64,000 nucleotides of DNA from an uncultured virus (IMG/VR IMGVR_UViG_3300025120_000029) (IMGVR_UViG_3300025120_000029); one strand, 5' to 3'. Shown: positions 10,395 through 63,600, counted from the stretch's first letter. Notes: generated by a model not told the origin, from the letters alone. Translations and numbers: made by a program.

Positions 10395-11318
10395 TTATAA
10401 ACTCATTATCATATCAACAAAGTCTGGATGTGGATAACAATCCATTTTATCTTTCCTTACGTTGGTATGTGTTAACAAACCTTCTATTTTACCATAGTAT
10501 GCTTCTTCTTGAAAATCAAATCCTTTTGTAACACCATATTTTTTTATAAACTGTTTAAGTCCTAATCTAATATCTATATTATCTCTTTCACCTACAAACT
10601 TAATCCACTTTTCAGTTTCATTAATTTGTTTATCAGAATAAGAATGCCAATGCATCTTACCTCTAAACATTTCTTTTAACTCTGTTACCTGATCATCTTG
10701 ACATATACTATTAACATAGGTAGCTTTAGTGATACTATCTAAATATCCCATACTACATATTTCCAGTCCTACAGAATGTTTGTTCATAAAACCAGAACCT
10801 GTCTTTCCTAAATGATAAGCTTGATTCCCTGTATCAAATGCCTGAACCATTACACCATCATGTTCATCATTGCCATTTCTGTGATTAATGCCACCTAAAA
10901 CAAATTCAGTAGCAATTCTACCTCTTTTATCTCTACCCCACATGTCTACACAAGCATAAGGATTAGAGTTACCAGCAGTATGATGTAAAAATATATAATG
11001 ATTTTTTATAGGTCCTTTTACATATTCACCTTTTGGTAAAAAATATTTATGTATAGTTTGATTAAAGTTTGTAACGTAATGTTGTTTAGATAAATCATTA
11101 TCTTCATCAATCTCTTCAGATAACTTAAATGGTGTACTAATGAGTAATGTCCATGTCTGTGATCCAACTATACCATCAGCTACTAAACCATTGCTTAGTT
11201 GAAATCTTATAACATGTTTTTCTGTTTGAGGACCAAAATGACCATCTTGAGGTATATTAAGTTTAAGTTGTAACTTCTTTACCTCTATATTTTTATCACC
11301 TAACTTAAGAAGTCTCAT
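10395..11318 (-). CDS. Endolysin: peptidoglycan-binding domain plus N-acetylmuramoyl-L-alanine amidase (Amidase_2-like)
   Basis: N-terminal VKKLQ..L...DGHFGPQT...FQ..NGL.ADGIVG. Catalytic IFLHHTAG, AYHLG, SVGLEI, LTHTNVR.DK.DC.P. Confidence 0.85.
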   Translation of the reverse strand: MRLLKLGDKNIEVKKLQLKLNIPQDGHFGPQTEKHVIRFQLSNGLVADGIVGSQTWTLLISTPFKLSEEIDEDNDLSKQHYVTNFNQTIHKYFLPKGEYVKGPIKNHYIFLHHTAGNSNPYACVDMWGRDKRGRIATEFVLGGINHRNGNDEHDGVMVQAFDTGNQAYHLGKTGSGFMNKHSVGLEICSMGYLDSITKATYVNSICQDDQVTELKEMFRGKMHWHSYSDKQINETEKWIKFVGERDNIDIRLGLKQFIKKYGVTKGFDFQEEAYYGKIEGLLTHTNVRKDKMDCYPHPDFVDMIMSL

Positions 11319-11985: not shown

Positions 11986-12228
11986 TTATCTATTTTTACC
12001 TTTGTGTAAACCATGACTAGCATGTTGTTTACCTTTTTTTGTAGCAGCTCTTTTCTTAGCGTTTGCTGCAGCTAATTTCTTTTTACCTTTCTTAGTACTC
12101 TTCAACTTAGAAATAGTCTTAGACGGAGCATATACTTCACCAGTGTCAGAAGATTTCTTTCCGCTTGCAGTTCTCCATTTCTGTTTGGTCCATCTAGTAA
12201 GACTTTTTTGTTGTTTAGTCTTTGCCAT
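11986..12228 (-). CDS. Small basic protein (QKSLxxWTxQxWxT motif)
   Basis: 80 aa, very Lys-rich: QQKSLTRWTKQKWRT...GEVYAP. Confidence 0.65.
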   Translation of the reverse strand: MAKTKQQKSLTRWTKQKWRTASGKKSSDTGEVYAPSKTISKLKSTKKGKKKLAAANAKKRAATKKGKQHASHGLHKGKNR

Positions 12229-12325
12229 TATTGCATATTATATCTTTATTTTGTGAGCAACACTCTTTTGGTGCTGCACATGCTGCTAATGTAAATAACA
12301 GAAATATTATTATTTTTTTACTCAT
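12215..12325 (-). CDS. Micro-lipoprotein (36 aa)
   Basis: Not in the track: MSKKIIIFLLFTLAAC-AAPKECCSQNKDIICNNGKD. Basic n-region, hydrophobic h-region and lipobox LAAC. The ATG overlaps the upstream stop (ATGA). Confidence 0.55.
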   Translation of the reverse strand: MSKKIIIFLLFTLAACAAPKECCSQNKDIICNNGKD

Positions 12326-41900: not shown

Positions 41901-42656
41901 TGCCTGATCTCCCCATAAAACTCTTCCGTCTGATACACCTGCGTTGTTTGGATCTTCTCTTGCTATAAGTACTTGACCTATATTTGGTAATCCCGTACCA
42001 CCACCTGATGAAGCAGCATCAAACACAGGACCACTTAAAATAAGTTTGTTATTAACTCTAGTACTAGTAGGTGGTGAGCTAGCACCAGTAGTAATACTTC
42101 CAAAACTAGTATTTACAAATCCATTAACTAAAAAGTTGTTGCCGTTAGTAAAAGTAAAACTATCATTTGTTTGTAGTTCTCCATCTTTATCTGCAAAAAC
42201 CACTTGACCACGGAAATTTGGGAAAGGATTGTTTGGTTGTAACTTAGGAATAAAAACTCTATCATAAACAGTGAGTGAAGCGGGTTTAAATGATGTGCCA
42301 ACATATATCATTGGATCTCCAACACCTATTTCCTGACTCATTATAGAATTCTTTATTGTATCCCAATTACATTGTCCTGATGGGACAGTATATACAGGAA
42401 TTATACCAGGTTCTCCAGAATATTTTTCAGTGCTTGTAAATCTACCAAGACCCATGGGTCCTGTTTGACTACATAACCAACTACCAGCACTAATTGATAA
42501 AGCCTGACCTTGAGGAGCAAAACCTCCTGCTGAAGTTTTTGCTCTAGACAAAGCACCTTTTCTTACAAACTGAAAATAATCATCAGTTGGATTTAAAGAT
42601 GTCTTAACAAAATTTCTTTTTAATAGTCCTAGTACTTCCTGTACAAATATGCTCAT
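38985..42656 (-). CDS. Large fibre/spike protein with cadherin/Ig-like (Big_9-type) domains and a possible vWA-like C-terminal domain
   Basis: EDNP...A.DD...GTL.FN..GAF.FTP..NFNG..TFTY..NDG Ig-like unit, a second Ig-like unit P.WLTF, FCSDTSGSM, and internal repeats (GT..R.......L.xSLL.Q). Confidence 0.65.
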   Translation of the reverse strand: MSIFVQEVLGLLKRNFVKTSLNPTDDYFQFVRKGALSRAKTSAGGFAPQGQALSISAGSWLCSQTGPMGLGRFTSTEKYSGEPGIIPVYTVPSGQCNWDTIKNSIMSQEIGVGDPMIYVGTSFKPASLTVYDRVFIPKLQPNNPFPNFRGQVVFADKDGELQTNDSFTFTNGNNFLVNGFVNTSFGSITTGASSPPTSTRVNNKLILSGPVFDAASSGGGTGLPNIGQVLIAREDPNNAGVSDGRVLWGDQAIPDLQFGELIIGYKNPQPPSGTIVPAVGSFTSGALGTGNNNDVLTSGGPNGFPSWAPNPGINGSGTPFRLSAFNTTNTLIDSLLVQDNNLPIVDPSFATQTITNSGKWINTGTMKLLDVPQDATQEKVLVLDTSTGQVKFRFANSIGLTGTSTLRRVPLWSPDGLNLQSSLLIQSGMVQPPANYPVADPNFTNQKLTNDGSLQQTKELYLDTVTQDDTLTEVLVRDASSANEVKFRNVATIVPPVGFDTLTMSTTADWNQTFLNAYISLDDTTVPYRSIKGMTTLTDGQTGVVIAENVKQGTFLADDVLRFPIGWGTVGNLYNSKISWAAGFDNGYPTSTLKYGESLKFKYHNYEIPGGGFAYKYVLYWESCCKLFSLNTCPTVSNATYTALEDNPISQTVTAVDDGYGGYTGVYTASALANPAAGTLVFNSSTGAFVFTPTTNFNGSTTFTYTYNDGYCDSAPGTIVLNITPVAEPPIWTSQDPVDANTYPNLTGGDAWTYTWTTSDADHPCNLLTYVITVNANSTGAVQIWPLPSGQPSPSWLTFTPDPTNNCTGTLAGTYPIAGGNFEVIMEVRDPDPNLGSQSFTIGGLTVTKDSYFVFCSDTSGSMITTIQETAQMSSVPVVTSKSNGGFTGSKTLRLASGNQAGRVNDPSGLVDDSFLCIIDGMEVSGNGITAGTKVDSGGGGTPSNATLDLELDQVHFATANDVLTFTLTQDQKETAYNGSNNFRNLLQDYYATGGTFASGNTNSATNGQDMYDSHLYWYHNPQERPIGYLGFQAQGGFQVATIGSTGYFPDAESIVVMAWADESGTNTGPPPQTNTYKAGPTEVGADTWNDRGMPGGSVNTVLVADVSATRGFINALEGVAGNNSIYRGIAFRVLTNANNDLEEIMGPGGFAETGGRNALGYNTSYNPEALAYTVNTQSLQSFSSTAPKRITYVGSVSNQPSNGSVYYYNLVRQELIAIGFSI

Positions 42657-42686: not shown

Positions 42687-45600
42687 TTATGCATATACTG
42701 TAATGTTAATATTTGGGTTAATACCACTTGGTGTACCATTAGCACATGTTTTTAATACTACAATAAAGCCTGATGTTGTTTTAGTTCTTATTTCACAATA
42801 TACACAACCACCAGCATTTTCTATTTCTGGATTAGCATTAACTAAATATGTAGCATTAGATCTTGTTTGGTTAAAAGTTACTTCATATACATAACCTGTT
42901 ACAGATACAGTGTTATTTCCAGAAAATAAAGATTTTCCTTGATTTTCAATTCCTCCTGTGCTCATAGCAAAGTAATCAGTTGGTTGTCTATCTACTGCTA
43001 CTGCAGCTCCACTTGATGCAGCAGTAAGTCTTCCTTGTTGGTCTACTGTAATAGTAGAACTAGTATACGTACCTGGAGTTACAGATGTATCAGAAATTTT
43101 AATTTCTATAGTGTCATTACCTGCTGATGTTGTTGCTACACCAGTTCCTCCAGATAAAATTAATGTATTTCCATCTGTAATTGAATTTGTAGTTCCAGTA
43201 TCTCCTTTAGCACTAAATGAATACTGAGCAGTATCTGTCCACGGAACATTAACTACTAATTGTTCAGCAGCGTTAATTTGTAATCCATATGTTCTACTAG
43301 CTATAGCACTTACTGCATTTGCAGCAACTGTCTGAGTTATATCTGAACTTAATTCAGCACCACCACGTGCAGTAGCTGTCATTAAAGGTAATGCGTAATC
43401 ATTCCATGGTACATTAACTACCATCTGACCTGCAGCATTTAATTGGATACCATATGTTCTAAGTGCAGTAGTACTTATTGAAGCAGAAGCAACTGTTTGA
43501 ACTGTATTTGAAAACAATTCAACTCCACCAAGTACAGTTGCTGTTGCAACTGGTAAAGTGTAAGCTCCAGCATACTGGGGTATGTTAAGAACACCACTAC
43601 TTAATGTAGCTGCACCTGAAGTTCCTGTCGTAGTTAAACTAACAAATGTTGGTGCTGAACCTGCTACAACACTAGTTACATGTCCTTGTGCATCTGTAAC
43701 TACTGAACTTGGATAAGCAAATGTACCTGCTGTACCAAACGCATTATGATTAACTGTAATTGTGTCTGGAGCTGAAGTAACTGAAGTTAATGCAGTTCCT
43801 CCTAATACCTTAACGGCATTTCCACTTGCAACAGTTTGTGCAAGTCCTGAATCTCCTTGTATAGTAAAGCCTTCATAGTAACCAGGCATAGTATTAATTG
43901 CAACCTTATAAACATTAGTATCAGTTAGATCACTAAATGCTATAAAGTCTTCTGGTGCTGCTACTACTGTAGATCTTAAGTTAATATAGTTATCAGCACC
44001 TAAATAATCCAAGTTAAAAGTAATTCCGGATGCTGTATTTAGTGTTGTTATACCTAGTCCTCCTGCAAAATCTACTATGTTACCACTATTTATAGTAACA
44101 TTTGATCCTGCATCTGCTTGAGTTACCCAAGTATAACCACCTGCAGGACCATTTGCTGCTGCTGTTAGTCTACCTTGTGCGTCAACTGTTATATTAGCAT
44201 TTGTATATGAACCAGCTGTTACTGCTGTGTTATCTAAATCAAGTGTAAGCTTTCTTGTACCTGCTAAAGTTGATGTTAAACCAACGCCTCCTAAAACTTC
44301 TAATATTTCACCATTAGCTACTGTTTGATTTGCTCCTACATCAGAACCAACAGTCCATGATGTCATTCCAGCACCACCACTGCTTGCTGTAGTTATTCTT
44401 CCATATGTATCAACAGTTACATTTGCATTTGTATAAGATCCTGCTACTACACCACTTGCTGTGCTGTTTATATTAATTGTATCTCCTCCTGAGTTTACAG
44501 TAGTTAGAGTACCTGTAGTATTTCTAAATTTAATTACTTCATCCTTTAAAACCTCTATATTAGTACCTGTTACTGAATCTGCAAGCCATCTATAGTTAGT
44601 TGGAAAACTTGATAGTAATGATTTTTTAATAGTGCTGTCTGTTGCATCACTAAACCAAAAGAAATCATCTGGATCTGGTGCAGCTGTGTTTGCAAATAAT
44701 ATTGCATTAGTTGCACTAGCATATGTTATATTTACTGTAGGCGTTAGCGTTGCTGTTCCTGTTACAGTTATCCCATTTCCACCTGATACTGAAGTCACTG
44801 TACCACCAGATGCATAATTAGGAATATTTAATACTCCTGAATTTAATGTTGCAGCTCCTGATGTTCCAGTAGTTGTTAAACTTGTGAAAGGAATTGTTAA
44901 CGTAGCTAAATTACCTTGACCTGTTATATATTGAGCTGCGCTTCCTGCCCATGTAAATCCTAAAGCTGGTGCAGTTGTAGGGTTTGCAACAGTTACATCA
45001 AAAGCATCTCCTGCAATTGTTGCACTTACTGTAGTTACACTACCAGATCCTGCCGGTATTGCCCATGTATTATCTCCTCTAAGGAATGTAGTATTACCTG
45101 GAGTTCCTGTTGCTGATAAATCTCCTGTAATTGTACCTGCAGCTGTTATTGTTCCACCAGTTACATTTACAAATGTTCCATTAGATGTTGCTACAGAAGT
45201 TACTGTACCTGCAGGAATAGCCGGAAAAGTAACTAAGTCTCCCTCTCCATTTATATATTGAGAAGCTGTACCTGCCATTGTAAAAGATACATTTCCTGCA
45301 GTTGTTACAGCAGATCCGTCAATAAATGCATTACCATCAGTTTGTAAACCAACAGAAGTTACTGTCCCAGTTCCTACTGTAGGAAAGGTTACTAAATCAC
45401 CTGCACCATTCACATATTGAGATGATGAACCTGCCCAAGTAAAAGCTAATGTACCAGAAGAAGTAATAGGAGTTCCTGCCACATCTAATGCATTACCAGC
45501 TGTTGATGCTGCAACACTTGTAACTGTTCCAGTTCCACCAGAAGCAGTAATTGTAACTTGGTTTGATCCGTTATCTGATAGTGTTATATTATTACCAGCT

Positions 45601-45902
45601 ACTAATTTTACTGTATCTACACTTGCATCTGACCCTGTAAGTTTTAAATCTACACTCCCTCCAGGTGCTTGTATACTACTATAATCATAAGTAGTATTTG
45701 CAGCTACTACAATAGCATCTGCAAATTGTTTAGCTGAAATTAAATTTTGATCTACTTTAGGTAAGTAAGCCATTACATTTAATGAACTATCTCCTTTATT
45801 AGATAGTACAAAATAATCATCCTCGCTTGGTACATAAGGTAGAGGTTTTACAAATTTTTTCTTTGAAAATAGTGTTAAAACATCTTGAAGTAGTGAGCCC
45901 AT
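42687..45902 (-). CDS. Tail fibre protein (Gly/Thr/Ser-rich repeats)
   Basis: Repeated GTVTSV, AG.ASQY.NG.G.L.TFP, GSYTNANITVD.QGRLTAA and TTTGTSGAATL..GVLNIP.Y units. Confidence 0.75.
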   Translation of the reverse strand: MGSLLQDVLTLFSKKKFVKPLPYVPSEDDYFVLSNKGDSSLNVMAYLPKVDQNLISAKQFADAIVVAANTTYDYSSIQAPGGSVDLKLTGSDASVDTVKLVAGNNITLSDNGSNQVTITASGGTGTVTSVAASTAGNALDVAGTPITSSGTLAFTWAGSSSQYVNGAGDLVTFPTVGTGTVTSVGLQTDGNAFIDGSAVTTAGNVSFTMAGTASQYINGEGDLVTFPAIPAGTVTSVATSNGTFVNVTGGTITAAGTITGDLSATGTPGNTTFLRGDNTWAIPAGSGSVTTVSATIAGDAFDVTVANPTTAPALGFTWAGSAAQYITGQGNLATLTIPFTSLTTTGTSGAATLNSGVLNIPNYASGGTVTSVSGGNGITVTGTATLTPTVNITYASATNAILFANTAAPDPDDFFWFSDATDSTIKKSLLSSFPTNYRWLADSVTGTNIEVLKDEVIKFRNTTGTLTTVNSGGDTININSTASGVVAGSYTNANVTVDTYGRITTASSGGAGMTSWTVGSDVGANQTVANGEILEVLGGVGLTSTLAGTRKLTLDLDNTAVTAGSYTNANITVDAQGRLTAAANGPAGGYTWVTQADAGSNVTINSGNIVDFAGGLGITTLNTASGITFNLDYLGADNYINLRSTVVAAPEDFIAFSDLTDTNVYKVAINTMPGYYEGFTIQGDSGLAQTVASGNAVKVLGGTALTSVTSAPDTITVNHNAFGTAGTFAYPSSVVTDAQGHVTSVVAGSAPTFVSLTTTGTSGAATLSSGVLNIPQYAGAYTLPVATATVLGGVELFSNTVQTVASASISTTALRTYGIQLNAAGQMVVNVPWNDYALPLMTATARGGAELSSDITQTVAANAVSAIASRTYGLQINAAEQLVVNVPWTDTAQYSFSAKGDTGTTNSITDGNTLILSGGTGVATTSAGNDTIEIKISDTSVTPGTYTSSTITVDQQGRLTAASSGAAVAVDRQPTDYFAMSTGGIENQGKSLFSGNNTVSVTGYVYEVTFNQTRSNATYLVNANPEIENAGGCVYCEIRTKTTSGFIVVLKTCANGTPSGINPNINITVYA

Positions 45903-47262: not shown

Positions 47263-47664
47263 TTATTTGTTATTGTTTTTTACTTTTTCTAATGAACGTC
47301 CTCCAAAGTATGCACCTATTACTGTAATTAAAACTAATTGTAATAAATCCACCCAAGAAGCTTTGACATCAAATGAAATAAAACCTGCATCAACAAATAC
47401 TAATAGTACTGTTGATACAACTAAAAATATTAATGTCATTGGTCTTACGTTCTTACTTAACCAACTATCTGAATTCATATCTGAACTCCATCTTGTTGAA
47501 ATTTCTTTCTCCATATCTACTTCATGCTTGGAGATTAACTCTTTTATCTTTAACTCAGCAGCAAGCTTTTCATCAGCTGAAGTATGTAGCTCGTCTATAA
47601 CTCCACCAATACCTTTAACTAATTCTTTAGCTCCTCCTGAAAATATTTTACTTAGTATACTCAT
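47263..47664 (-). CDS. Holin-like membrane protein (3TM-holin type)
   Basis: RWSSDMNSDSWLSKNVRP, two hydrophobic helices, and GAYFGGRS.EK. Confidence 0.6.
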   Translation of the reverse strand: MSILSKIFSGGAKELVKGIGGVIDELHTSADEKLAAELKIKELISKHEVDMEKEISTRWSSDMNSDSWLSKNVRPMTLIFLVVSTVLLVFVDAGFISFDVKASWVDLLQLVLITVIGAYFGGRSLEKVKNNNK

Positions 47665-47668
47665 AATT

Positions 47669-49291
47669 TTATGGATAAATTATAATTTCTATTCCTGTTC
47701 TTTCTAATACACTATCAGCTTGAGTTAAAGATGAAGTCTCATAGGTAAATATATTAAAGCTATTAGTAGTTGCTGATGTTATATTTGTTAATGAAGGTCC
47801 GTTCTTATAATTTCCTGTTGCAGCTGTCATATATACTTTATTTACATCAGCTAATGCAGATGACCATGTAGCTCTATAATTTCCTACTCCTACACGTACA
47901 TAAGTTAATGTTTTACCTGTTGTGTTTTCTAAGACTGTTTCTACTGGATTTCCATTTGTTGTCTGAGTTAACAGAGCTCTATAAACTGTAGAACCAACAG
48001 AACCTGCTGTTATAGAAGTAACATGTCCTTGTGCATTTGTTGTAATTGATGAAGGAGATGCATATGTTCCCGCTGTACCATAATCATTATGATTTATAGT
48101 TACTCTTTTCTGTTGAGCTTGACCAGTTGGTGTGAGCTCAGCACCAACAGTACCTAAGGCTGTACCTCCTACAATATTTAAATCTTCTTCATTTGTTACA
48201 GCACTGCTTCCTACAAGTATATTATTAGCTCTAACTAAAAAACCATTATAAAAACCAGGCATAAGATAAATCTGTTGCTTTATAAGTTGATCACCTGCAC
48301 TACTATCACTATACATTATATAGTCTACAGTTGCTGGAGTAACTGTAGGTCTTGACATTATTAAGTTATCTGTACCTAAAGCATTCACACCTATTGTTAC
48401 TGTGTCAGCTGCACTTACTCCTATTTTAAGACCACCTTCTGTTGATGATAAATTTGATTGTGTAAAAGTTACTGTATCATTATTAGCTATAGCCTGTGTT
48501 GTAGATCCATCTGTTATATTAAATGTATAACTACCTCCTCCACCTGATCCATTACTTGCTGCAGTCAATCTACCCTGTTGATCTACAGTAATGTTTGCAT
48601 TGGTGTAAGATCCCGGTGTAACAGCGGTGTCATCTAAGTCAATTTCTAATGTACCATTTAGACCTGATGCAGCCATACTAGTTGTAATTCCTGTATCTCC
48701 ACTAATCAATAAACTAAATCCTGACCCTACACTTATGCTAGGGTTTAAACCACCATCTGATCTTACTACCCAATTATATGTATTAGTAATTGTTAGCTCA
48801 TCAGCAGTTTGTCCAATAGTAATATTAGTTCCCTCAACTAATGTTCTAAAGTTAAGTGTCTCACCAACTTTATTTTTCCATACTTCTTTACCAGTTCCTA
48901 CATTAGCTGCAAGATTAGGTTCACCTGTTGTTGTAATTTCTATATAATCATCATCTGCAGAAGTAGCAAGAGTAAGGTTGCTGCTCATTGATTTAAGGGA
49001 TCTATAAAATACAGTACACTTTTGTGTAGTTGGATCAACTACAGTTTTTTGATATACTTGCCCTGTACCAGCAGCTGGTATAGCTGGAGAATTTGCATGG
49101 TCACAATGTTCAGCAGCAACCTTAAAATCTCTTACCTTTATTACTTTTATGCTTTTGTAAGGAATAGGAGAAGCAACACCAGTCATATCTGGTTCTTCAT
49201 TCACACCTAAAACTAATACATCATCAAGACCTGCTGTCTTTGCATATACAGATCTTTTTATTAAACTTAATACATCAGTTAAAATGTTCAT
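47669..49291 (-). CDS. Fibre-like structural protein related to the 1071-aa fibre
   Basis: Shares DTAVTPGSYTNANITVDQQGRLTAA and H...GTAGTYA.PSS.TT.AQGHVTS..AG units. Confidence 0.65.
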   Translation of the reverse strand: MNILTDVLSLIKRSVYAKTAGLDDVLVLGVNEEPDMTGVASPIPYKSIKVIKVRDFKVAAEHCDHANSPAIPAAGTGQVYQKTVVDPTTQKCTVFYRSLKSMSSNLTLATSADDDYIEITTTGEPNLAANVGTGKEVWKNKVGETLNFRTLVEGTNITIGQTADELTITNTYNWVVRSDGGLNPSISVGSGFSLLISGDTGITTSMAASGLNGTLEIDLDDTAVTPGSYTNANITVDQQGRLTAASNGSGGGGSYTFNITDGSTTQAIANNDTVTFTQSNLSSTEGGLKIGVSAADTVTIGVNALGTDNLIMSRPTVTPATVDYIMYSDSSAGDQLIKQQIYLMPGFYNGFLVRANNILVGSSAVTNEEDLNIVGGTALGTVGAELTPTGQAQQKRVTINHNDYGTAGTYASPSSITTNAQGHVTSITAGSVGSTVYRALLTQTTNGNPVETVLENTTGKTLTYVRVGVGNYRATWSSALADVNKVYMTAATGNYKNGPSLTNITSATTNSFNIFTYETSSLTQADSVLERTGIEIIIYP

Positions 49292-51053: not shown

Positions 51054-52679
51054 ATGGAATACAAAAAATATTACTGGCTTAATCAAGATAGCAGAACGTT
51101 TCTGTCTAGAGGTTATATAACTGAAACACCAGAACAAAGAATAAAAGACATTGCTATTAAGGCAGAAAAATATTTAAACATCAAAGGCTTTGCTGAAAAG
51201 TTTGAAGACTATATGGCACGTGGTTTTTACTCTTTATCTACTCCTGTATGGATTAACTTTGGTAAACAAAAAGGTTTGCCTATTAGTTGTTATGGTTCTA
51301 ATATAGATGATAACTTAGATAGTATACTAAACGCAGGCCGTGAAATAGGTATGATGTCTAAGTATGGCGGAGGGACAAGTGCTTTCTTAGGAAACATTAG
51401 ACCAAGAGGTAGTGAGATATCTACAGGCGGTCATGCTGATGGTCCTATTCACTATGCTAGGATGTATGATACAGTAGTTGATGTATGTAAACAATCAGAA
51501 GCTAGACGTGGTGCATGTGCAGTATATTTACCTGTAGAGCATCCAGATATTGCTGAGTTCCTAGACATAGGTACTGAAGGTAACCCTATACAAAACTTAC
51601 AGTATGGTATTACTGTTACTGATGAATGGATGAAAGAAATGAAAGAAGGAGACAGAAAAAAACGTAAAGTTTGGGCTAAGATTATACAGCGTAGATCTGA
51701 GTTTGGATATCCTTATATAATGTTTAAAGATAATAGTAATAATAATTCTCCATATAAAGAAATAGGACTTGAAATTACAGCATCAAATCTATGTTCAGAG
51801 ATACAGCTGCCAACAGATAGTTATAATTCTTTTGTGTGTTGTTTAGGATCTATAAATCTATTACACTGGGATGAGATCAAAGAGACTGATGCAGTACAAA
51901 CTTATGTATACTTTTTAAATGCTGTTATGGATGAGTTCATTATCAAGTCAGAAACAATGCCCGGAATGAAAAGAGCATATAACTTTGCAGAAAAACACAG
52001 AGCAATTGGCTTAGGTGTATTAGGATACCATTCTTTATTTCAATCAAAGCTTATAGAGTTTGAATCACTAGAAGCTAAACAACTTAACTCAGAGATATTT
52101 AGAACAATAAAAGATAGAAGTGAAATAGCCTCAAGAAAACTAAACTCTGAATATGGATATAGGTGTTTAAGAGAAGGTTATGCTAACACTACACTTATGG
52201 CTATTGCTCCTACTAAATCTAGCTCCTTTATACATGGTGCAGTCTCTATGGGTATAGAACCTATTAAGTCTAACTACTTTATTAAGGATCTTGCTAAGTC
52301 TAAAACAGTTTATAAAAATCCTTTTTTAGAGTGTGAGTTAGAAAAACATGGTATTAATAATGATAAGACATGGAAATCTATACTTAAAAAAGACGGAAGT
52401 GTACAACACTTAGACTTTCCTACTAAGGCTGTGTTTAAATCATTTGTAGAGATAACACCAAAGGAACTTGTACTACAAGCAGCACAAAGACAAAAGTATA
52501 TTGATCAATCACAATCACTTAACTTAATGATAGACCCTTCTGTATCAGCTAAACAAATTAATCAGTTGTATTTGTATGCACATGAGGAAGGAGTAAAAAC
52601 CTTATACTATCAGTTTAGTAAGAGTTCTGCACAGGACTTTGCAAGAAACATTTTAGAGTGTGGTAGCTGTGAGGGTTAG
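51054..52679 (+). CDS. nrdA: Ribonucleotide reductase class I alpha subunit (short form, no ATP cone)
   Basis: STPV, PISC, RRGA, SNLCSEI, VCCLGS, IAPT.SSS, DQSQSLNL, KTLYY and C-terminal CGSCEG. Likely start is the ATG at 51054. Confidence 0.9.
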   Translation: MEYKKYYWLNQDSRTFLSRGYITETPEQRIKDIAIKAEKYLNIKGFAEKFEDYMARGFYSLSTPVWINFGKQKGLPISCYGSNIDDNLDSILNAGREIGMMSKYGGGTSAFLGNIRPRGSEISTGGHADGPIHYARMYDTVVDVCKQSEARRGACAVYLPVEHPDIAEFLDIGTEGNPIQNLQYGITVTDEWMKEMKEGDRKKRKVWAKIIQRRSEFGYPYIMFKDNSNNNSPYKEIGLEITASNLCSEIQLPTDSYNSFVCCLGSINLLHWDEIKETDAVQTYVYFLNAVMDEFIIKSETMPGMKRAYNFAEKHRAIGLGVLGYHSLFQSKLIEFESLEAKQLNSEIFRTIKDRSEIASRKLNSEYGYRCLREGYANTTLMAIAPTKSSSFIHGAVSMGIEPIKSNYFIKDLAKSKTVYKNPFLECELEKHGINNDKTWKSILKKDGSVQHLDFPTKAVFKSFVEITPKELVLQAAQRQKYIDQSQSLNLMIDPSVSAKQINQLYLYAHEEGVKTLYYQFSKSSAQDFARNILECGSCEG

Positions 52680-52783
52680 TCTTTAATAAAAACTACAATA
52701 TCACAACCATGACAAAAGTAATATTTGTCATCACCTGCACCAGAATAATAAGTCATTGCTGAATTGCATTTTTTACATCTCAT
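52676..52783 (-). CDS. Zn-ribbon micro-protein (35 aa)
   Basis: MRCKKCNSAMTYYSGAGDDKYYFCHGCDIVVFIKD with two CxxC motifs. Confidence 0.5.
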   Translation of the reverse strand: MRCKKCNSAMTYYSGAGDDKYYFCHGCDIVVFIKD

Positions 52784-52785
52784 GT

Positions 52786-52872
52786 TTATTTTTGTTTTAA
52801 GTCATCTATTAATAGTTGACAAACTGTAAAAATAATAAATATATAAAATACTAAAAGTGTATACTTTTCCAC
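52786..52872 (-). CDS. Possible hydrophobic micro-peptide (28 aa, GTG start)
   Basis: MEKYTLLVFYIFIIFTVCQLLIDDLKQK, abutting both neighbours. Confidence 0.3.
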   Translation of the reverse strand: MEKYTLLVFYIFIIFTVCQLLIDDLKQK

Positions 52873-53292
52873 TTAGTAACTTGCTTCACGCCTAACTACT
52901 TCTATAGCTCTGACCATTTTGTTATAGTCTACAGGGCATAATAGATCAAGCTTAGCTCTTGCTGTAAATTTAATGTATGCATCACCCTTTAAATATAATA
53001 GTAGGGTTGGTGCCATTCTAATTCTAAGTTCTTTTTTTAATTTTGGTGATGTTGCAATATCACATCTATAATATGTGACTCCTTCAAGTTTGTTAATTTT
53101 TTCCCAGTCTTGAAACGCATTATCTTTATTAAACTCTGCCCAGAATTCTACTACAATTACATCATCTTCTTCATTTTCATCAAAAGCTGATCCTGCTGTA
53201 ACTTTTTCTTCAAAGTTTTTATCTGTTATCCATTCCTGAGACAGTACAGTTGTTGTTGTTAAAAGCAATAATACTGTAAGGAGATACTTCAT
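52873..53292 (-). CDS. Secreted thioredoxin-fold protein lacking CxxC
   Basis: Signal peptide MKYLLTVLLLLTTTTVLS-Q. ITDKNF...VIVVEFWAEFN replaces FWAxWCxPC. Also YYRCDI...IRMAPTLLLY. Confidence 0.7.
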   Translation of the reverse strand: MKYLLTVLLLLTTTTVLSQEWITDKNFEEKVTAGSAFDENEEDDVIVVEFWAEFNKDNAFQDWEKINKLEGVTYYRCDIATSPKLKKELRIRMAPTLLLYLKGDAYIKFTARAKLDLLCPVDYNKMVRAIEVVRREASY

Positions 53293-53293
53293 T

Positions 53294-53584
53294 TTAATTC
53301 TTTTTAGTTAACTCGTAGATTCTCTCTTCCATTTTGTCAAACTTTTCTAATAAAGCTTCTACATCTTCTTGAGTATCCATAATGGTTTGTCTAATAAGCT
53401 CATCTTTTAAATCATACTCTACTCTTTCTATTGGAGGTTTTGGATTCTCCATTGCCGTAGCTATGTCTGCTTTTAATGTAAACCACATTGTAGAAAGTGA
53501 GATTGTAAAGCCCACAACCATACCAATTGTTTTTAAATCTAAAGTTATTTTTGTTTTTTCTCCTATTTCTGGTACTCCTGCCAT
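53294..53584 (-). CDS. Single-pass membrane protein with a C-terminal coiled coil
   Basis: TM segment TIGMVVGFTISLSTMWFTL and coiled coil TQEDVEALLEKFDKMEERIYEL. Confidence 0.65.
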   Translation of the reverse strand: MAGVPEIGEKTKITLDLKTIGMVVGFTISLSTMWFTLKADIATAMENPKPPIERVEYDLKDELIRQTIMDTQEDVEALLEKFDKMEERIYELTKKN

Positions 53585-53596
53585 TGTTTTATTTTT

Positions 53597-54799
53597 TTAC
53601 TTGAATGTATAATTTAATCCTAATGTTGTTTGAAACAGCTCACTGTCCCACATCTTAGAGTATTCTCCTTCCATAAATAACCCTATATTTTTATTTATCT
53701 TCCAGCCTAAGTTAGCACCAAAAGAATAGTCTGCCCATTGTTCTGGGTCATTATCCTCTATCAATCCTCCCTTACCCCAATTATTTCTGTTTAAATAAGA
53801 AACAACCTCATCACCTTTTAAGTAGTTATGGTAAGGTAATATATAGTTAGCATATGCATGCAACCAAAAGTTTCTTTTATAATGATAAAAGTCCATCCCT
53901 ACTATTGGTGCTATCTCACCAAATGCAGGCACCTCTTCTAACATTTCTCTATTATAACGGTTCATTAAATCTGTAAATACAGTTTCTCTAAAATCAATAT
54001 CAGAATAAGCTACAATAGTTCCATCTTGATCTCTCCATATCCAGTCTTGCATTTGTTGACCTGTTTCAGCATCTGTGTATGTAGTAAGATGATCAGTATA
54101 ACCATATTCAAACCCTAATGTATACCAATAGTTAACTGGATATTCTTGACCGTTAATTATTTGTGTTTCATTTAACCAGATTTCAATAGGGTTATAACCA
54201 TATGCACGGCTATGAGTTCTATAAATTGCACCTGCAGAGATACTAAACTTTTCTCCTAAAGGCAACCTTAATCTTGCTTCTGCTGATTCATAGGCTAGAT
54301 TTATCTTTCCTACCTCTCTTGACTCAACTTTAAAGATGTGATGGTCTCCTGTATGCTTTATGAAGAATCTGTGATTTCTAAACATCTCACCTCTCCAACG
54401 TTCTTTCTCCCAATGTAATTGATATTCTAAGCCTTTTAATGCAGAACTTGGAGCACTAAACGCTAACTGTTCTTCTGTACCATCATAAAAGTTTCTTGGT
54501 TTTCTCTCGTAACTAAACCTTGCTAGCTTTCTAATACCAAAACCAATTCTATAATCATATGGATAGTCAGGTGTATTGTCTACTACAACAGGTATATCAT
54601 ACAGACCATTGCCATCTCCTGTTCTTACAAAATAGGTTGACACATCTTCTTCTATAGAGTTGTTTATATCAACAGCTCCGTATACAGTACCATATTTAAT
54701 AAAATCTTTATATAGGGATTTAAAAAATGGTGAACCATCTTGAGCAGAAGCACCATTCATAACCAATATACACACTAATAAACTTACATATCTTTTCAT
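53597..54799 (-). CDS. Putative outer-membrane beta-barrel protein
   Basis: Signal peptide ending ASA-Q, many amphipathic aromatic strands, and C-terminal TTLGLNYTFK resembling a BAM beta-signal. Confidence 0.65.
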   Translation of the reverse strand: MKRYVSLLVCILVMNGASAQDGSPFFKSLYKDFIKYGTVYGAVDINNSIEEDVSTYFVRTGDGNGLYDIPVVVDNTPDYPYDYRIGFGIRKLARFSYERKPRNFYDGTEEQLAFSAPSSALKGLEYQLHWEKERWRGEMFRNHRFFIKHTGDHHIFKVESREVGKINLAYESAEARLRLPLGEKFSISAGAIYRTHSRAYGYNPIEIWLNETQIINGQEYPVNYWYTLGFEYGYTDHLTTYTDAETGQQMQDWIWRDQDGTIVAYSDIDFRETVFTDLMNRYNREMLEEVPAFGEIAPIVGMDFYHYKRNFWLHAYANYILPYHNYLKGDEVVSYLNRNNWGKGGLIEDNDPEQWADYSFGANLGWKINKNIGLFMEGEYSKMWDSELFQTTLGLNYTFK

Positions 54800-54837
54800 A
54801 TTGTAGTTTTGTTATGTTAATACTATTGGTTTATATA

Positions 54838-54845
54838 ATAATATA
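54838..54845 (-). promoter_or_regulatory. TATATTAT candidate promoter upstream of the beta-barrel cassette
   Basis: TTCTTATATTAT, the same as the element at 2368, about 39 bp upstream of the ATG. Confidence 0.4.
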
Positions 54846-54892
54846 AGAACTTTTTATGAATCTAAGAAGAACTTAACCTGAAAATTTGGCAT

Positions 54893-60684: not shown

Positions 60685-63600
60685 CTATAAATTACATTTT
60701 TTAATTTGATCAATTAATTCTTGTGGGCTACCCCACATAGAGTTAGGATTCCTATCATACAAATCTAATAAATCTTCTAAACTATTAATATTATTTTCTC
60801 TTTTAAAGTTTTTAACCTCTGTACTAAATGAACCATCTTCTATATTGCTATCCCAAAACTCTGTTATTTCAGGATGACTAATAAAAGGATCAAACATATC
60901 TAACTGACCTATCAACTCCTGTCTATTCTCACTAATAGGAAGCTCTTCTACTTCTAATATACCTAGTTCTTCAGAAGTAATATTGTCTGTTGCCTCTGCA
61001 ATTGATGCCGCAATAGCATCTAATTCTGCAGTGTCTACTATATTTACACTATCTATAATTACTGATTCGTCTGTTACATCCAGATTAATAGATTGATTAC
61101 GGAATATTTGTGGTACAGTTTTACTTGTATCTTCTGTTTCTTTAACAACCTCTGGTGTGCTTTTTGATACTTCAGGTTTCTCCATCATTTGTTTTAGAGT
61201 AGGTCTATTACCAAACATAAATCCTGCACCAAACTGTAAAGGAGAACCTATCAAATCAACTGATGTTTTTTCTTGATCATTTCTTTGATATATAGTTGAT
61301 TCTATACCGGTCTGACGGTCTATAGTATCCATCCTTTTTATTGCAATTGAATCAGTTTCAGAATTAAACTTTCTTGGTAATAACTTAGCATTAGATGCAG
61401 ATAGCAAATAGTTTTCTACAAAAGATGTCGTACCTCCAGCATCTGTAAATTCTTTAGATCTTAAATATTTTTCTGTAGAATTAATTTCAGATAAATAGTC
61501 TTCTAGAACATACGGGCTAATTGATTCTAATAAACCACCCGGTGCTAATTGTAAACCATCTTTAACCATAATATAATTTATAACAGTTTTTGCAAATTGT
61601 CTTGTATCAGGGTTATTGTATAATTTATTAAATGAGGTTTGTAGATCATATTTTTGTAATCTATTTAGCTTTCTCCATGTGTTTGCTTGAGCTAGATACA
61701 AACCTGATCTATTACCCTTATCAGTTGGTTTGTATGTTGTAACAAAATCAAATAAAAAGAAATTGCCAGGATCACTTATTCTAAGTTGTTCTACTGCATG
61801 CCATACATTACCTTGTTCATTATCTTGTCCTGGATATAGTATACCGTTACTTAAAGGATTATTTTTATCTATATTTTGATATGCACTTAATGTGACAAAT
61901 GCTAATACATCTTTTTTAACTTTTGTTCTAACGGCCTCACTATTCTTATATAAGTTTGTATCTAATCTTCCAACTAATTCTGATGTAATTCTTTTTACAC
62001 CTGGTGTCTGTGATAAAAACATCTTTGGTAAAATATTTACATTTATGTCTGATAGTTGTTCAGATAATCCAGATAGATATGAACTACTCAACATATTTCT
62101 TACCTTTATAAAATAAGGATTTTTTATAAAATCATTTATGCTTTCTACCCTTTGAGAAATACTATCAATGTTTTTTCCTAATCCATTGTTAAGACTTACT
62201 AGACTATTTAATTTAACCGTAAAATTAGATATAGTAATTACTTTTGCAAAAACCTGTAAGGCCCCTTGTAATTCAAGTACTTCTAAATTATCAGCTACTC
62301 CTCTTTCTAAAGCATCTTTATCAGGAACTATACCCTTTACTATTTTTCCTTTATCATCTCTTTCTATTAGATCATTTATTCTATCTCCAATAGAAGGAGA
62401 TATACCATCACTATTATCAATTTGTCTATATATATCTTGTATAATTTTTTGATTTAAAAGTAGTATAGAAGTTTCTAACGGAACACCAAGTTGAATCATA
62501 TTTGATAACATACGTGTAGCATGAGCGTTCAAACCTAACTTACTTACCAAAAACTCTTTAGCATTGTCTGTCATAGCAACTATTAGAGAAGACATTAAAT
62601 CTTGTTTTCTCATTCCGTTTTCATTTAAAGTTCCACCAAAAGACTTATACTCTTTACCATCAAGCTCAAACTTTAAAGTACCTAAACCTATTTTATATTC
62701 TTTAAATAAAGACAAATATAAATTTGGTGAAACTACTGAACCAATTGAAGCACCCTTATTGTTTGTAAAAGCAACAGTTTGTCCAGTAAGGGTATCTATA
62801 TCTTTACCTGCTTGGTTAGTTCTTTCTGAAAAACCAGGTAATTTTCTAACACTCTCCCAAACATTCTTTAATAAATCTAAGTTAGACGGTCTATAAGCTA
62901 TTGGATATGTACCTGATGTTAAATAATCATTACTTACTAATTGACGTTTATAATCTACTAGTTTATTGCTTACAGGTGCTTCATAAGGAGCCTGCTTATT
63001 ATCTTTTACAAATTGATTAAACTCACTTTGAGTAATAGGCATACCTAATACTTTTAAAGCACCAACAGCATTCTTACTAAAGCCAGCATTTTCAGCAGGT
63101 GTTTGATCTATATCAACTAATGAATCAGATATTATAACACCTTGTAGTTTATATAATTTTATAGCTTCAGAATATTGGTTTCCTGTTTCATTAACCTTTT
63201 TGTTTACATAATTAATATAACTAGAATAATTATTTTCATATGCTTTAAACTCACCTTTCTCTACATAAAACTCCTTCATGTGTATGTATGCTTGATCTAT
63301 ATCAAAATCTGCACCAGACACTTCTATAAGTTCATTTGAAAACATTGCTGAACCTCCCATGAAGTTGGGTAAAAAATCTACAACCTTTACATTAAAGGCA
63401 GAATGATAGTCTTCACTAGGTATACGTACAGCATACATCTCACTAACTACATCAGGTATAGTATTTTTATATCTTCTATATTTACTCTTATAAGCCAATA
63501 AGTCATTTACTTCTTTTGATTGAGGAGGCATAATTGCTTCAGAATATCTTTGACCTTGATATTCACCACCTTTATATTCTTTTAAGTTATATCTTAAACG

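Follow-up and report, generated by a model that had tools for sequence, protein, structure and literature searches.

A phage-encoded trio of a predicted outer-membrane barrel, a membrane coiled-coil protein and an exported cysteine-less thioredoxin, and its linkage to lysis genes

The trio locus

The window, the whole stretch of 64,000 nucleotides that was analysed, comes from an uncultured marine phage of 108 kb, and the phage origin and the Bacteroidota-type (Flavobacteria-type) host signal are upheld. Three genes on the minus strand, in the order p400, p96 and p139, encode a predicted outer-membrane barrel, a predicted inner-membrane coiled-coil protein and a thioredoxin that lacks its active site and is predicted to be exported (Table 1). 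They directly follow a long minus-strand block of giant genes, which starts with the terminase, portal and capsid genes, and p400 lies closest to a conserved non-coding spacer. All five open reading frames that an earlier sequence-only reading had placed here, namely the trio and two micro-ORFs, are present on the minus strand where it had put them.

Table 1. Features of the trio locus and the lysis genes of the window
Feature	Coordinates	Strand	Description
p400	53597..54799	minus	signal-peptide protein, 400 aa; predicted outer-membrane beta-barrel of ~12 strands with ~96-residue insert (197-292)
p96	53294..53584	minus	96 aa; short conserved N-terminus, one TM segment (20-37), acidic heptad-repeat helix (38-96)
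p139	52873..53292	minus	139 aa; predicted exported thioredoxin-fold protein without CxxC site (EFWAEFNKDN)
p28 micro-ORF	52786..52872	minus	hydrophobic, GTG start; doubtful, outside the conserved set
p35 micro-ORF	52676..52783	minus	CxxC...CxxC; lineage-restricted, outside the conserved set
Conserved non-coding block 1 (CAAATTTnCAG)	54878..54888	minus	~89 nt upstream of p400 start
Conserved non-coding block 2 (TATATTATnnTATAAACCA)	54828..54846	minus	ends ~29 nt upstream of p400 ATG; candidate promoter of the sequence-only reading
Holin-family gene	47263..47664	minus	phrog_3427 'holin', E 7.6e-31
Endolysin	10395..11318	minus	PHROG endolysin families

The micro-ORFs have the hydrophobic and CxxC...CxxC character claimed for them, but their membership of the conserved set fails: p28 has a tblastn match in three of the 34 viral loci, all of them at least 92% identical in p400, and p35 is matched in six of the 34. 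The zinc-ribbon Pfam matches of p35 are weak (E 0.005 and worse, below the cut-off).

The operon had also been credited with a candidate promoter of its own. A sigma-70 consensus scan called no site in the 93-nt spacer upstream of p400; what stands of the claim is a pair of conserved blocks, both invariant across seven aligned sequences (the window and six loci). Block 1 lies at -88 to -92 in 11/11 loci of the window's subgroup, is missing upstream of p400 in the 29 further loci that were listed, and has a single exact match in the window, where near-matches are at chance level. It may be a promoter, operator or processing site. Block 2 likewise has a single exact match in the window, and TATAAACC is found at -36 to -40 in all 11 subgroup loci. 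Block 2 is invariant even though the identity of the flanking giant gene is as low as 36-38% in five of the six aligned loci.

Predicted folds and export signals

Judged by its sequence, p400 begins with a signal peptide, MKRYVSLLVCILVMNGASA, followed by QD; it ends in LGLNYTFK. The signal is of the signal-peptidase-I type (ASA before Q) and has no lipobox. All 31 full-length homologues share an N-terminus of this kind, with [AGS]Q at its end in about 26 of them. A C-terminal beta-signal ends in an aromatic residue; F is the second-last residue of the window protein (...NYTFK), and many divergent homologues end in F. An AlphaFold2 model based on a 33-sequence alignment (mean pLDDT 75.4, pTM 0.65) contains 12 long strands and the insert in its DSSP string; the choice between 12 and 14 strands, as well as barrel closure, is a prediction that rests on fold matches and not on coordinates. 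Foldseek returned 32 matches to this model at E<=1e-3, and among the matches listed all are membrane beta-barrels, namely bacterial outer-membrane proteins and one mitochondrial TOM entry. The best 50 VIA matches are nearly all membrane beta-barrels (top Z 10.4), with no family prominent. The 12-stranded specific channels among the matches, NanC (Foldseek TMt 0.51) and Tsx (VIA Z 8.0), are level with other barrels. The modelling and fold search predict a membrane barrel, in agreement with the 400-residue signal-peptide barrel that had been proposed from the sequence.

An unnamed viral homologue of p400 matches in BFVD (E 2.7e-28, TMq 0.71), and the nearest Atlas clusters are viral and likewise without a name. 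The family comprises 2313 clusters at E<=1e-3 and 249 clusters at 50% identity. No sequence match was found in Pfam, PHROG or PDB; no Pfam family was hit at E<=0.1, and none was common to more than two of 33 homologues at E<=1. Divergence is faster in p400 than in the portal (portal/p400 identity 89/75, 87/83, 75/66 and 70/31%). The stretch after strand 2, residues 92-122, has a conservation of 0.57 and a gap fraction of 0.01, equal to the strands, whereas the long outer loops have a conservation of 0.36-0.47 and carry most insertions and deletions. Given a correct 12-strand topology, residues 92-122 would face the periplasm. Conserved charged residues at inward-facing strand positions suggest a filled or narrow lumen, which is a judgement from the alignment and the model and not a measurement.

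As read from its sequence, p96 has a single hydrophobic segment (I20-L37) and then a conserved charged region in which hydrophobic residues recur at 3-4-3-4 spacing between about residues 64 and 92, in line with the TM plus coiled-coil protein described earlier. Its predicted topology is N-in, C-out, with a periplasmic part of only 59 residues. The layout of an N-terminal TM segment followed by a helical repeat is that of i-spanins. Among 21 aligned sequences, 22 columns are invariant and flank the TM segment on both sides. The protein collection contains at least 8000 clusters of this family. No significant PDB match was found, and members match only PHROGs without assigned function, save one member with one 'lipoprotein' match; phrog_1009 (function not assigned) is weakly matched by 16 of the 21 (best E 1.8e-4). 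In locus L033, a p96 paralogue with the same N-terminus and TM segment adjoins a Tyr/Pro-rich lipoprotein.

The exported Cys-less thioredoxin of the sequence-only reading is supported. p139 scores 28.1 bits against Pfam Thioredoxin PF00085 (cut-off 23.5), a profile built from its alignment recovers classical thioredoxins from the PDB (7e-8), pairing VDFWAEWCGPC with VEFWAEFNKDN, and its model (pLDDT 80.8) matches E. coli-type thioredoxins at TMt ~0.8 and rmsd ~2.1 A. FNKDN stands where thioredoxins have CGPC, and CxxC is present at the site in 0/21 homologues. The cis-proline P95, aligned with the thioredoxin P of 'IPT', is invariant (21/21). By its sequence, p139 is of thioredoxin fold and descent and is not a redox-active member of PF00085. 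The fold matches include PDB 1t7p chain B, the E. coli thioredoxin bound to T7 DNA polymerase. E. coli thioredoxin acts redox-independently as a subunit of this polymerase, and p139 is likewise proposed to use the classical fold for binding instead of disulphide exchange. Unlike the polymerase subunit, p139 is phage-encoded and is predicted to reach the periplasm, and both cysteines are gone from all 21 homologues.

Gln directly follows the predicted signal-peptide cleavage site of p139 in 21/21 homologues. Gln after the cleavage site is described as the Bacteroidetes Q-rule (PMC5837995, PMC10653852), and the signal peptides of both p139 and p400 fit this rule.

Co-inheritance and gene neighbourhood

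Synteny across phages shows that the trio is kept as a unit. In 33 of the 34 viral loci, p400, p96 and p139 keep one order and one strand, and the remaining locus is on a contig that ends after p96. The full trio is present in 8 of 12 MAG contigs, with p400 homologues of a mere 30-32% identity among them. No fusion proteins of trio members were found, and a literature search found no published description of the module. G005, a 68-kb record rated complete, has the trio and no match to the portal or terminase of the window phage, which indicates that the trio is mobile as a unit between unrelated phages. The whole trio is absent from two complete genomes of related phages, G011 (portal 76% identical) and G013 (62%), and neither a paralogue nor a lipoprotein substitute was found in either. 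The same slot in G011, from the giant gene to the convergent ribonucleotide reductase (RNR) gene, measures ~480 bp and holds one unrelated 121-aa ORF. Because these related genomes do without it, the trio is a dispensable, accessory cassette.

Outside the window's subgroup, a gene of the PHROG lysis category lies within 1.5 kb of the trio and is co-directional with it in 15 of 20 non-redundant loci, which represent few lineages only and not 20 independent events. The nearby endolysins belong to phrog_894/Peptidase_M15_3 in seven loci, to the PG-binding plus amidase type in three and to phrog_3000/33083 in three; a holin is the only trio-linked lysis gene in two further loci. The smallest gaps between lysis gene and trio are 11-47 nt (L035, L025, L015, L012), and the endolysin ORF of L037 overlaps the p400 start by 4 nt.

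The window's subgroup has RNR genes after the trio and no lysis-cassette placement. The window endolysin is 42 kb from the trio; the holin is 5.2 kb from it, and two RNR genes on the other strand lie in between. In L045, a holin gene located 1.3 kb downstream of p400 is 76% identical to this holin, and the window endolysin is an orthologue of the trio-adjacent endolysins of L015 and L044 (45-48% identity). RNR genes occur in 26 of 46 loci, about as often as lysis genes do. Most loci of the M15-endolysin lineages (L010, L012, L027, L028/L029, L035), and likewise L031/L032, have an adjacent lysis gene and no RNR gene within the fetched DNA, which extends to at most 4 kb on either side. An RNR gene lies 2.6 kb from the trio in L030 and 0.2 kb from it in L037.

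The window phage yielded no spanin that could be recognised. A lipobox scan of the whole phage picked up two short ORFs and no others, one of 36 aa at 12215-12325 and one of 42 aa on the plus strand at 48402-48530, the latter inside a 540-aa gene. Spanins are described as seldom recognised in flavobacterial phages (PMC8776804, PMC12596118). Some cassettes carry lipoprotein and TM-helix genes in addition to the trio, as in L033, and these are possible real spanins; L015 has a weak Rz-like match (E 5e-4). Where such genes are real spanins, the trio might be redundant or otherwise employed.

A possible barrel-based analogue of spanins

The trio may be an accessory, lysis-linked trans-envelope complex that serves as a barrel-based analogue of spanins, a reading that we prefer but hold tentatively. 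An infected Bacteroidota-type host would make the trio as a phage-encoded accessory envelope set. p400 would leave the cytoplasm through Sec, have its signal removed by signal peptidase I and assemble in the outer membrane as a ~12-stranded barrel, and p96 would be anchored in the inner membrane and extend its acidic heptad-repeat helix into the periplasm. p139, a periplasmic thioredoxin fold whose redox chemistry is lost, would act as a binding adaptor; it retains an invariant surface where the active site used to be. The analysis itself gives the folds, the export signals, the co-inheritance and the linkage to lysis genes in other lineages, whereas we infer the topology, the assembly of the three proteins into one complex, its timing and its function. 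Together they would link the inner and outer membranes and act at the last lysis step, in which the outer membrane is breached or released after the endolysin removes the wall, in a useful but dispensable manner.

This reading gains from the predicted locations of the three proteins, their co-inheritance and mobility as a unit, the lysis linkage and the i-spanin layout of p96. It also gains because no spanin is recognised in the phage and because residues 92-122 of p400 are conserved and would be periplasm-facing if the topology is right. Superinfection exclusion, uptake, receptor masking and a non-canonical spanin had all been offered as roles, and the spanin alone receives contextual support, from the lysis linkage in 15/20 loci. 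However, the reading is weakened because the window trio lies outside a lysis cassette, RNR neighbours are as frequent, and relatives live without the trio. It is further weakened because p400 is no lipoprotein, other spanins are possible, the lineages are few, the 59-residue periplasmic part of p96 is short and p400 diverges fast.

Two-component spanins of the lambda Rz/Rz1 type (surveyed in PMC6139136) share with the trio a gene for a small protein of the inner membrane, in which an N-terminal TM segment precedes a helical repeat, beside a gene for an outer-membrane-targeted protein. In many lineages, the pair also lies in a lysis cassette, co-directional with endolysin and holin. In contrast to the small lipoprotein of these systems, the outer-membrane partner in the trio is a 400-aa beta-barrel with a signal-peptidase-I signal, and p400 was rejected as an o-spanin on account of its length, its barrel model and the absence of a lipobox cysteine. 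The trio also differs by its constant third member, the thioredoxin-fold protein, by lacking conserved cysteines that could form disulphide links, and by genes arranged without embedding or overlap. Sequence comparison found no similarity to spanin PHROGs. Unimolecular spanins (T1 gp11 type) and the disruptin phiKT gp28, described as an alternative route for the outer-membrane lysis step (bioRxiv 10.1101/515445), are comparable with the trio as proposed alternative solutions to this step. Bacteroidetes phages are stated to use only unimolecular spanins (PMC12596118). Unlike these, the trio consists of three separate proteins and does not combine a lipoprotein signal and a C-terminal TM segment in one chain; unlike the disruptin, it has no cationic amphipathic peptide.

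The barrel itself resembles lambda Lom, cyanophage DUF680 and the barrels of huge phages in being virus-encoded, bearing a signal peptide and presumably being made in the infected cell. However, p400 has ~12 strands and a large insert, compared with 8 strands in Lom and 6+6 in DUF680. It is fixed in a three-gene set linked to lysis genes and has no sequence relation to these barrels and no Pfam match. An assignment of p400 to the Lom/Ail type was rejected on the strand number and the lack of a match to the family Pfam.

The accessory nature of the cassette would also suit superinfection exclusion, receptor masking or protection of progeny, in which the barrel loops bind or hide a host receptor while p96 and p139 assemble or anchor the barrel. 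Lambda Lom has a reported receptor interaction with LamB, and T5 Llp with FhuA offers a receptor-masking parallel. The clean presence or absence between related genomes, the cassette's own conserved element upstream, where a long gene block ends, the movement between unrelated phages and the concentration of insertions and deletions in the outer loops of p400 all agree with such a role. So does the report that outer-membrane barrels are common in huge phages, where receptor interference is discussed (bioRxiv 10.64898/2026.10.24.761521); that study has a 200-kb limit, and the window phage is below it. We nevertheless consider this role unlikely, because it leaves unexplained both the constant co-inheritance of an inner-membrane helical protein and a periplasmic adaptor and the placement between holin-like and endolysin genes, once with overlapping frames. 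No recurrent linkage to receptor-binding genes was noticed in a casual, not systematic, look.

The same lysis-cassette context could point to a regulator or sensor of lysis timing, in which an envelope-spanning device delays or triggers holin firing with a logic comparable to that of T4 holin T and its periplasmic antiholin RI. The conserved cytoplasmic N-terminus and TM segment of p96, common to its paralogue, the predicted soluble periplasmic nature of p139 and the dispensability of the trio are compatible with this. However, no similarity to known holins or antiholins was found, the PHROG matches of p96 being without function bar the 'lipoprotein' one, and we know of no antiholin system that needs a 400-aa outer-membrane barrel, which makes a timing role distinctly unlikely.

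The frequency of RNR neighbours, the window's included, and the presence of NanC and Tsx among the structural matches of p400, albeit no better than other barrels, raise the idea of an uptake channel in auxiliary metabolism, for example a pore for nucleosides or nutrients that would supply the adjacent ribonucleotide reductase pathway. This is improbable: most M15-endolysin loci and L031/L032 have the lysis gene without RNR, the p400 lumen is judged to be filled or narrow, and p96 and p139 are given no role. Shared backbone synteny and the descent of p139 from a thioredoxin could also account for the RNR linkage. Although the genes directly follow a block that starts with terminase, portal and capsid genes, it is highly improbable that they encode ordinary virion components or no envelope proteins at all, given the cleavable signal peptides with the host-specific Gln rule in two of the three proteins, a barrel model that matches almost only membrane barrels, and the lysis or replication-side contexts of the trio in other phages.

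The barrel-based analogue of spanins can be extended to a broader proposal, which we regard as doubtful. The trio would then represent a third architectural class of outer-membrane disruption, a 'spanin' of three components anchored by the barrel, with a redox-dead thioredoxin that would couple the inner-membrane coiled coil to the BAM-inserted barrel. If this is true, such a class would be used by a very abundant set of marine Bacteroidota phages, whose canonical spanins mostly escape recognition.

The p400–p96–p139 unit and its distribution

The genes p400, p96 and p139 form a unit. A scan of viral contigs with p400 yields 34 loci (L numbers) at 54-100% identity; p96 follows p400 in all of them and p139 comes next in 33, the sole miss being L023, which stops after p96. 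The intergenic gaps are mostly 2-15 nt, and four loci (L006, L010, L021 and L023) have one additional gene, a lipoprotein or a p96 paralogue, between p400 and p96. A species-genome scan with a single peptide pattern gives 12 contigs, eight of which carry all three genes, four of these with a p400 only 30-32% identical. All 12 come from MAGs and none from an isolate genome, and their labels are scattered over Woesearchaeota, Pelagibacter, Nitrosopelagicus, Flavobacteriaceae and others; they are read as mis-binned phage DNA, and a cellular origin of the trio was rejected on this single-pattern scan. The five ORFs exist as the sequence-only reading described them, and the synteny that it proposed to look for is present in both collections. 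The two micro-ORFs 3' of p139, which it had included, drop out of the cassette, p28 (3/34 loci) and p35 (6/34) recurring only in the closest relatives. A full-text search of the literature found no published description of this gene set.

The one real exception is L036, where p400 is present and neither partner occurs in the following 920 nt; L046 and L047 stop inside p400. In L041 a p96-like ORF with an N-terminal extension precedes the contig end, and assignment of this extension to a secretion-ATPase N-domain has no Pfam support. In L045, whose p400 homologue is only 31% identical, the trio is spread across about 4.8 kb with other genes in between; the paralogues and the repeat protein interleaved there (Table) have no family match.

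The phage genome to which the window belongs measures ~108 kb. PHROG matches identify genes for the portal (phrog_6547, 8e-92) and the large terminase (phrog_6681, 2e-63), for a capsid-like protein, for replication and ribonucleotide reductase (RNR), and for an endolysin and a holin family. The best cultured-phage matches of the portal are remote (Leptolyngbya phage Lbo-JY46, 33%; Cellulophaga phages phi4:1 and phi17:2, 27%; crAss-like phages, 22-24%), and in a cultured-phage collection of 50,697 records, from which close relatives of the window may be missing, neither a DNA match to the trio region nor a tblastn match to p400, p96 or p139 was found. The nearest record, G001 (108,143 bp, rated 94% complete), has 97% of the window's sampled words in common. 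From its position 108143 to the trio runs a single uninterrupted minus-strand series of very large genes; the trio stands at its end, faced by two RNR genes on the opposite strand. One giant ORF in this region comprises ~4400 aa in all, and the very large genes of the series encode 2219, over 1172, 841, 934, 1103 and 1929 aa; those compared with families gave no match.

Seven long contigs carry a related portal. p400 is found in five of them (portal 88-92% identical) and is absent from two records rated complete, G011 (portal 76%) and G013 (portal 62%). The trio is present in four of the six portal-related records rated at least 90% complete, including G001 and G002. p96 is missing from G011 as well, which retains the endolysin (62%), the giant gene (40%) and the RNR large subunit (81%); where the trio would stand, it has ~480 bp containing a single unrelated 121-aa ORF in the other orientation. 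The trio is absent as a whole from related complete genomes and is therefore an all-or-none, dispensable cassette. A complementary distribution was looked for and not found: neither the p96 paralogue nor a Tyr/Pro-rich lipoprotein was found in the trio-less G011 and G013. Flanks vary while the trio persists: a 68-kb record rated complete (G005) carries the trio and has no match to the portal or terminase of the window phage. p400 diverges faster than the portal (portal/p400 identity 89/75, 87/83, 75/66 and 70/31%).

Predicted features of the proteins and of the upstream spacer

No sequence relative of p400 was found in Pfam, PHROG or PDB, and its Atlas matches are viral unnamed clusters only. 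A YfaZ match (E 0.27) was dismissed as noise, and the nearest named Atlas clusters (Lsa36, Chlam_OMP, DUF6850 at 0.93) are leads only, DUF6850 not matching the phage record. The AlphaFold2 model from a 33-sequence alignment (mean pLDDT 75.4, pTM 0.65) has long strands at residues 38-46, 82-91, 123-135, 138-150, 154-163, 168-181, 185-196, 293-308, 311-320, 357-367, 372-383 and 386-397, with an insert of helices and small hairpins at 197-292; the number of strands (12, or perhaps 14) and the side on which each loop lies are read from the secondary-structure string. Foldseek against the PDB gives 32 matches at E<=1e-3, and all those listed are membrane barrels, including Flavobacterium johnsoniae BamA, NanC, FapF, autotransporter barrels, OmpG and one mitochondrial TOM entry; the query-normalised TM-scores are low (0.2-0.3), and the target-normalised maximum is 0.51, for the 12-stranded NanC. 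A second, Foldseek-independent fold search reaches Z ~10 for Omp33, EstA, CdiB, BamA, TamA, CymA, LpxR, PorV, NanC and others, and no family stands out. In a viral structure library, one unnamed homologue matches (E 2.7e-28, TMq 0.71), followed far more weakly by phage porins. From these fold matches and the missing sequence relatives, p400 is therefore a predicted outer-membrane barrel of no known family, which agrees with the barrel first suspected from amphipathic strands. Residues 92-122 hold the most conserved motif of the family (GIRKLARFxYE...FYDGTE), their conservation of 0.57 being level with that of the strands and the long outer loops scoring 0.36-0.47; this stretch would lie on the periplasmic side if the 12-strand topology is right.

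p96 consists of a single hydrophobic segment (20-37) followed by a charged helix-type region with heptad spacing, and 22 columns in all, spread over both sides of the membrane segment, are invariant among 21 homologues. One gene call, P0271, joins a p96 paralogue and p96 in tandem and is possibly an artefact. p139 is a classical thioredoxin by Pfam, PDB profile search and fold. Its WCGPC site reads F-N-K-D-N, and CxxC occurs there in none of 21 homologues, in which E49, F50, W51, A52, F54, N55, N58, F60 and the cis-proline show little or no variation. p139 was not found inside a longer protein, which is weak evidence. In L026, the trio's Cys-less exported thioredoxin is directly followed by a gene of the phage thioredoxin-domain family phrog_22 and then by a QueC-like gene; this arrangement bears on a possible descent of p139 from an RNR-adjacent phage thioredoxin.

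Gln stands directly after the cleavage site in 21/21 homologues of p139 and in about 26 of 31 full-length homologues of p400. Such a Gln right behind the cleavage site of exported proteins is described as the Bacteroidetes 'Q-rule' (PMC5837995, PMC10653852), and obedience to it points to a Bacteroidota host.

The spacer upstream of p400 is 93-104 nt long and contains two invariant blocks, CAAATTTnCAG and TATATTATnnTATAAACCA, the latter ending ~29 nt before the p400 ATG. Both are present in 11/11 loci of the window's subgroup, in most of which the giant gene upstream shows just 36-38% identity. Within the window each block occurs once and does not recur above chance, so no regulon is defined; the two look like a private regulatory element. 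Such an element fits the promoter of its own formerly proposed for the operon; a sigma-70 consensus scan of the spacer gave no site.

Lysis genes and other surroundings of the trio

The trio of the window does not lie within a lysis cassette. The window endolysin is 42 kb away and is 45-48% identical to the endolysins right after the trio in L015 and L044; in this phage the orthologous endolysin has thus been relocated. A holin-family gene is located 5.2 kb from the trio, on the far side of the RNR genes. Three large proteins without a PHROG match surround it; the two whose sequences were read (540 and 1071 aa) have common Gly/Thr-rich repeated motifs, for example VTPGSYTNANITVDQQGRLTAAS, and a tail-fibre-like appearance; therefore this 'holin' lies among such genes and not beside the endolysin. 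A simple scan of the whole phage for lipoproteins gives only one plausible candidate, a 36-aa ORF ~0.9 kb upstream of the endolysin that may not be a real gene; the other match, a 42-aa ORF, runs antisense to the gene for the 540-aa protein. At least half of the sampled words of the window stretch are present in 16 sequencing runs. Contigs covering the trio and its neighbours occur in X17, X18 and X20 (recorded as RNA) and X19 (probably DNA); they come from relatives, because they are mostly 90-99% alike, and as contigs in RNA libraries they are no proof of transcription and cannot rank genes.

In other phages, lysis genes are often close by. The context was assessed in 20 non-redundant loci outside the window's subgroup by comparing flanking ORFs with PHROGs, 19 ORFs in one pass and 77 of 113 listed in another; the other 36 are RNR ORFs known from tblastn, ORFs of L018/L027 (all but two in the first pass) and of L029 (nearly identical to L028), and, in L037, three small ORFs next to its RNR genes. 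A lysis-category gene co-directional with the trio lies within 1.5 kb in 15/20 loci (L010, L012, L015, L018, L021, L024, L025, L027, L028, L030, L031, L035, L037, L044 and L045). The five others are L026, L033, L040, L042 and L043, of which L040 is all but lacking in downstream flank and L042 extends only ~1.5 kb downstream. The endolysins are of different families, namely phrog_894/Peptidase_M15_3 (seven loci), PG-binding plus amidase (three) and phrog_3000/33083 (three), and two loci have only a holin (phrog_3427). The spacing is as short as 11 nt in L035, 12 nt in L025, 25 nt in L015 and 47 nt in L012, and in L037 the endolysin ORF overlaps the start of p400. Because the 20 loci stem from just a few lineages, the count overstates independence; linkage that survives replacement of the endolysin is the stronger argument. 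Several lineages have a conserved small two-TM protein ahead of p400 and, behind the endolysin, a holin with four hydrophobic segments. The protein with two hydrophobic segments in L015 and its homologues in one group of lineages (Table) is a holin- or antiholin-like candidate without a PHROG match.

Positions of the trio and of other genes discussed
Record	Position	Strand	Feature
Window	54799..53597	-	p400
Window	53584..53294	-	p96
Window	53292..52873	-	p139
Window	52872..52786		p28
Window	52783..52676		p35
Window	10395-11318		endolysin
Window	12215-12325	-	36-aa ORF, lipobox-like signal (LAAC), Cys-rich 21-residue mature part
Window	47263-47664		holin-family gene
Window	47669-49291, 42687-45902, 38985-42656	-	three large proteins around holin-family gene
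Window	60685-63999	-	C-terminal part (1104 aa) of giant ORF
L048	1-10035 (= G001 64000-74034)		>3345 further residues of giant ORF
L132	819-1184 (= G011 about 92618-92983)	-	121-aa ORF, HExxH-like motif (AHEVFH), between giant gene and RNR
L015	2975-3265		84-96 aa, two hydrophobic segments, directly upstream of p400; homologues in L016, L018-L025, L044
L026	5962-6219		85 aa, phrog_22, E 1.4e-8
L037	5546-6004		endolysin ORF (p400 start 6001)
L041	5583-5990		135-aa membrane protein upstream of divergent p400; mechanosensitive-channel beta-domain PF00924, E 1.6e-5
L041	7092-7697		p96-like; N-terminal extension of ~110 residues with poly-proline linker
L045	2567-2968, 3001-3378, 7259-7630		three ~125-aa paralogues ending ...GVF(G)V or similar
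L045	3734-5971		745-aa signal-peptide protein of Cys-containing repeats (GCxDxxxxNY...)
L033	6443-6874, 6878-7213		Tyr/Pro-rich lipoprotein family (136-148 aa) and 111-aa p96 paralogue
L006	5152-5562		lipoprotein family or p96 paralogue
L027	6550-6960		same
L030	7076-7516		same
L028	8331-8777		same
L036	7551-7994		same
L010	5221-5526		same

A possible envelope complex and its alternatives

It is supported that the three proteins are predicted for three envelope layers, are co-inherited and are co-directional with lysis genes in many phages. In its simplest model, the trio is tentatively read as a lysis-linked, spanin-like envelope complex. The inner membrane would hold p96, whose helix would reach into the periplasm, p400 would reside in the outer membrane, and p139 would clamp the two together through its invariant former active-site surface. 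Like spanins, such a complex would come into play once the wall is gone after endolysin action. The conservation of residues 92-122 of the p400 model on the would-be periplasmic side fits this proposal. So does L033, where a p96 paralogue that shares the N-terminus and TM segment of p96 stands beside a Tyr/Pro-rich lipoprotein that may be its o-spanin-like partner.

The lipoprotein and the p96 paralogue, which has a different helix from p96 and belongs to phrog_20984, are found repeatedly within the trio or near it, at times between p400 and p96; in L033 they lie side by side, resembling an o-spanin/i-spanin pair whose order is reversed. Cassettes that have the trio plus possible canonical spanin pairs weigh against the spanin-like complex, as do the dispensability of the trio and the failure of p400 to qualify as an o-spanin. 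Cultured flavobacterial phages are described as mostly showing only an endolysin, spanins having been recognised in only a few North Sea flavophages (PMC8776804), and a 2025 survey reports only unimolecular spanins in Bacteroidetes phages (PMC12596118).

Among the alternatives, superinfection exclusion or receptor masking is unlikely, if the best placed. For phages larger than 200 kb, a 2026 preprint describes outer-membrane barrels, with receptor interference as the role under discussion; its text, supplements apart, mentions neither thioredoxin nor spanin (bioRxiv 10.64898/2026.10.24.761521). That the trio serves as a lysis-timing device is less likely still. RNR genes neighbour the trio in 26/46 loci, about as often as lysis genes do, and an uptake channel tied to RNR is improbable. 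A virion or non-envelope role is very improbable. The remaining probability falls to something else.

The gene families of the trio are very common in ocean data, p96 with at least 8000 clusters and p400 with 2313 clusters at 90% identity (E<=1e-3) and 249 at 50% identity. Should the trio be the outer-membrane device, lysis machinery would gain a new type, the trio could serve as a marker by which lysis cassettes of uncultured marine phages are recognised, and a thioredoxin fold would have been recruited to the periplasm as a structural adaptor. Should it instead serve exclusion or masking, such a device would here have three parts and span the envelope. On either reading, the trio is a self-contained, testable cassette of about 2 kb.
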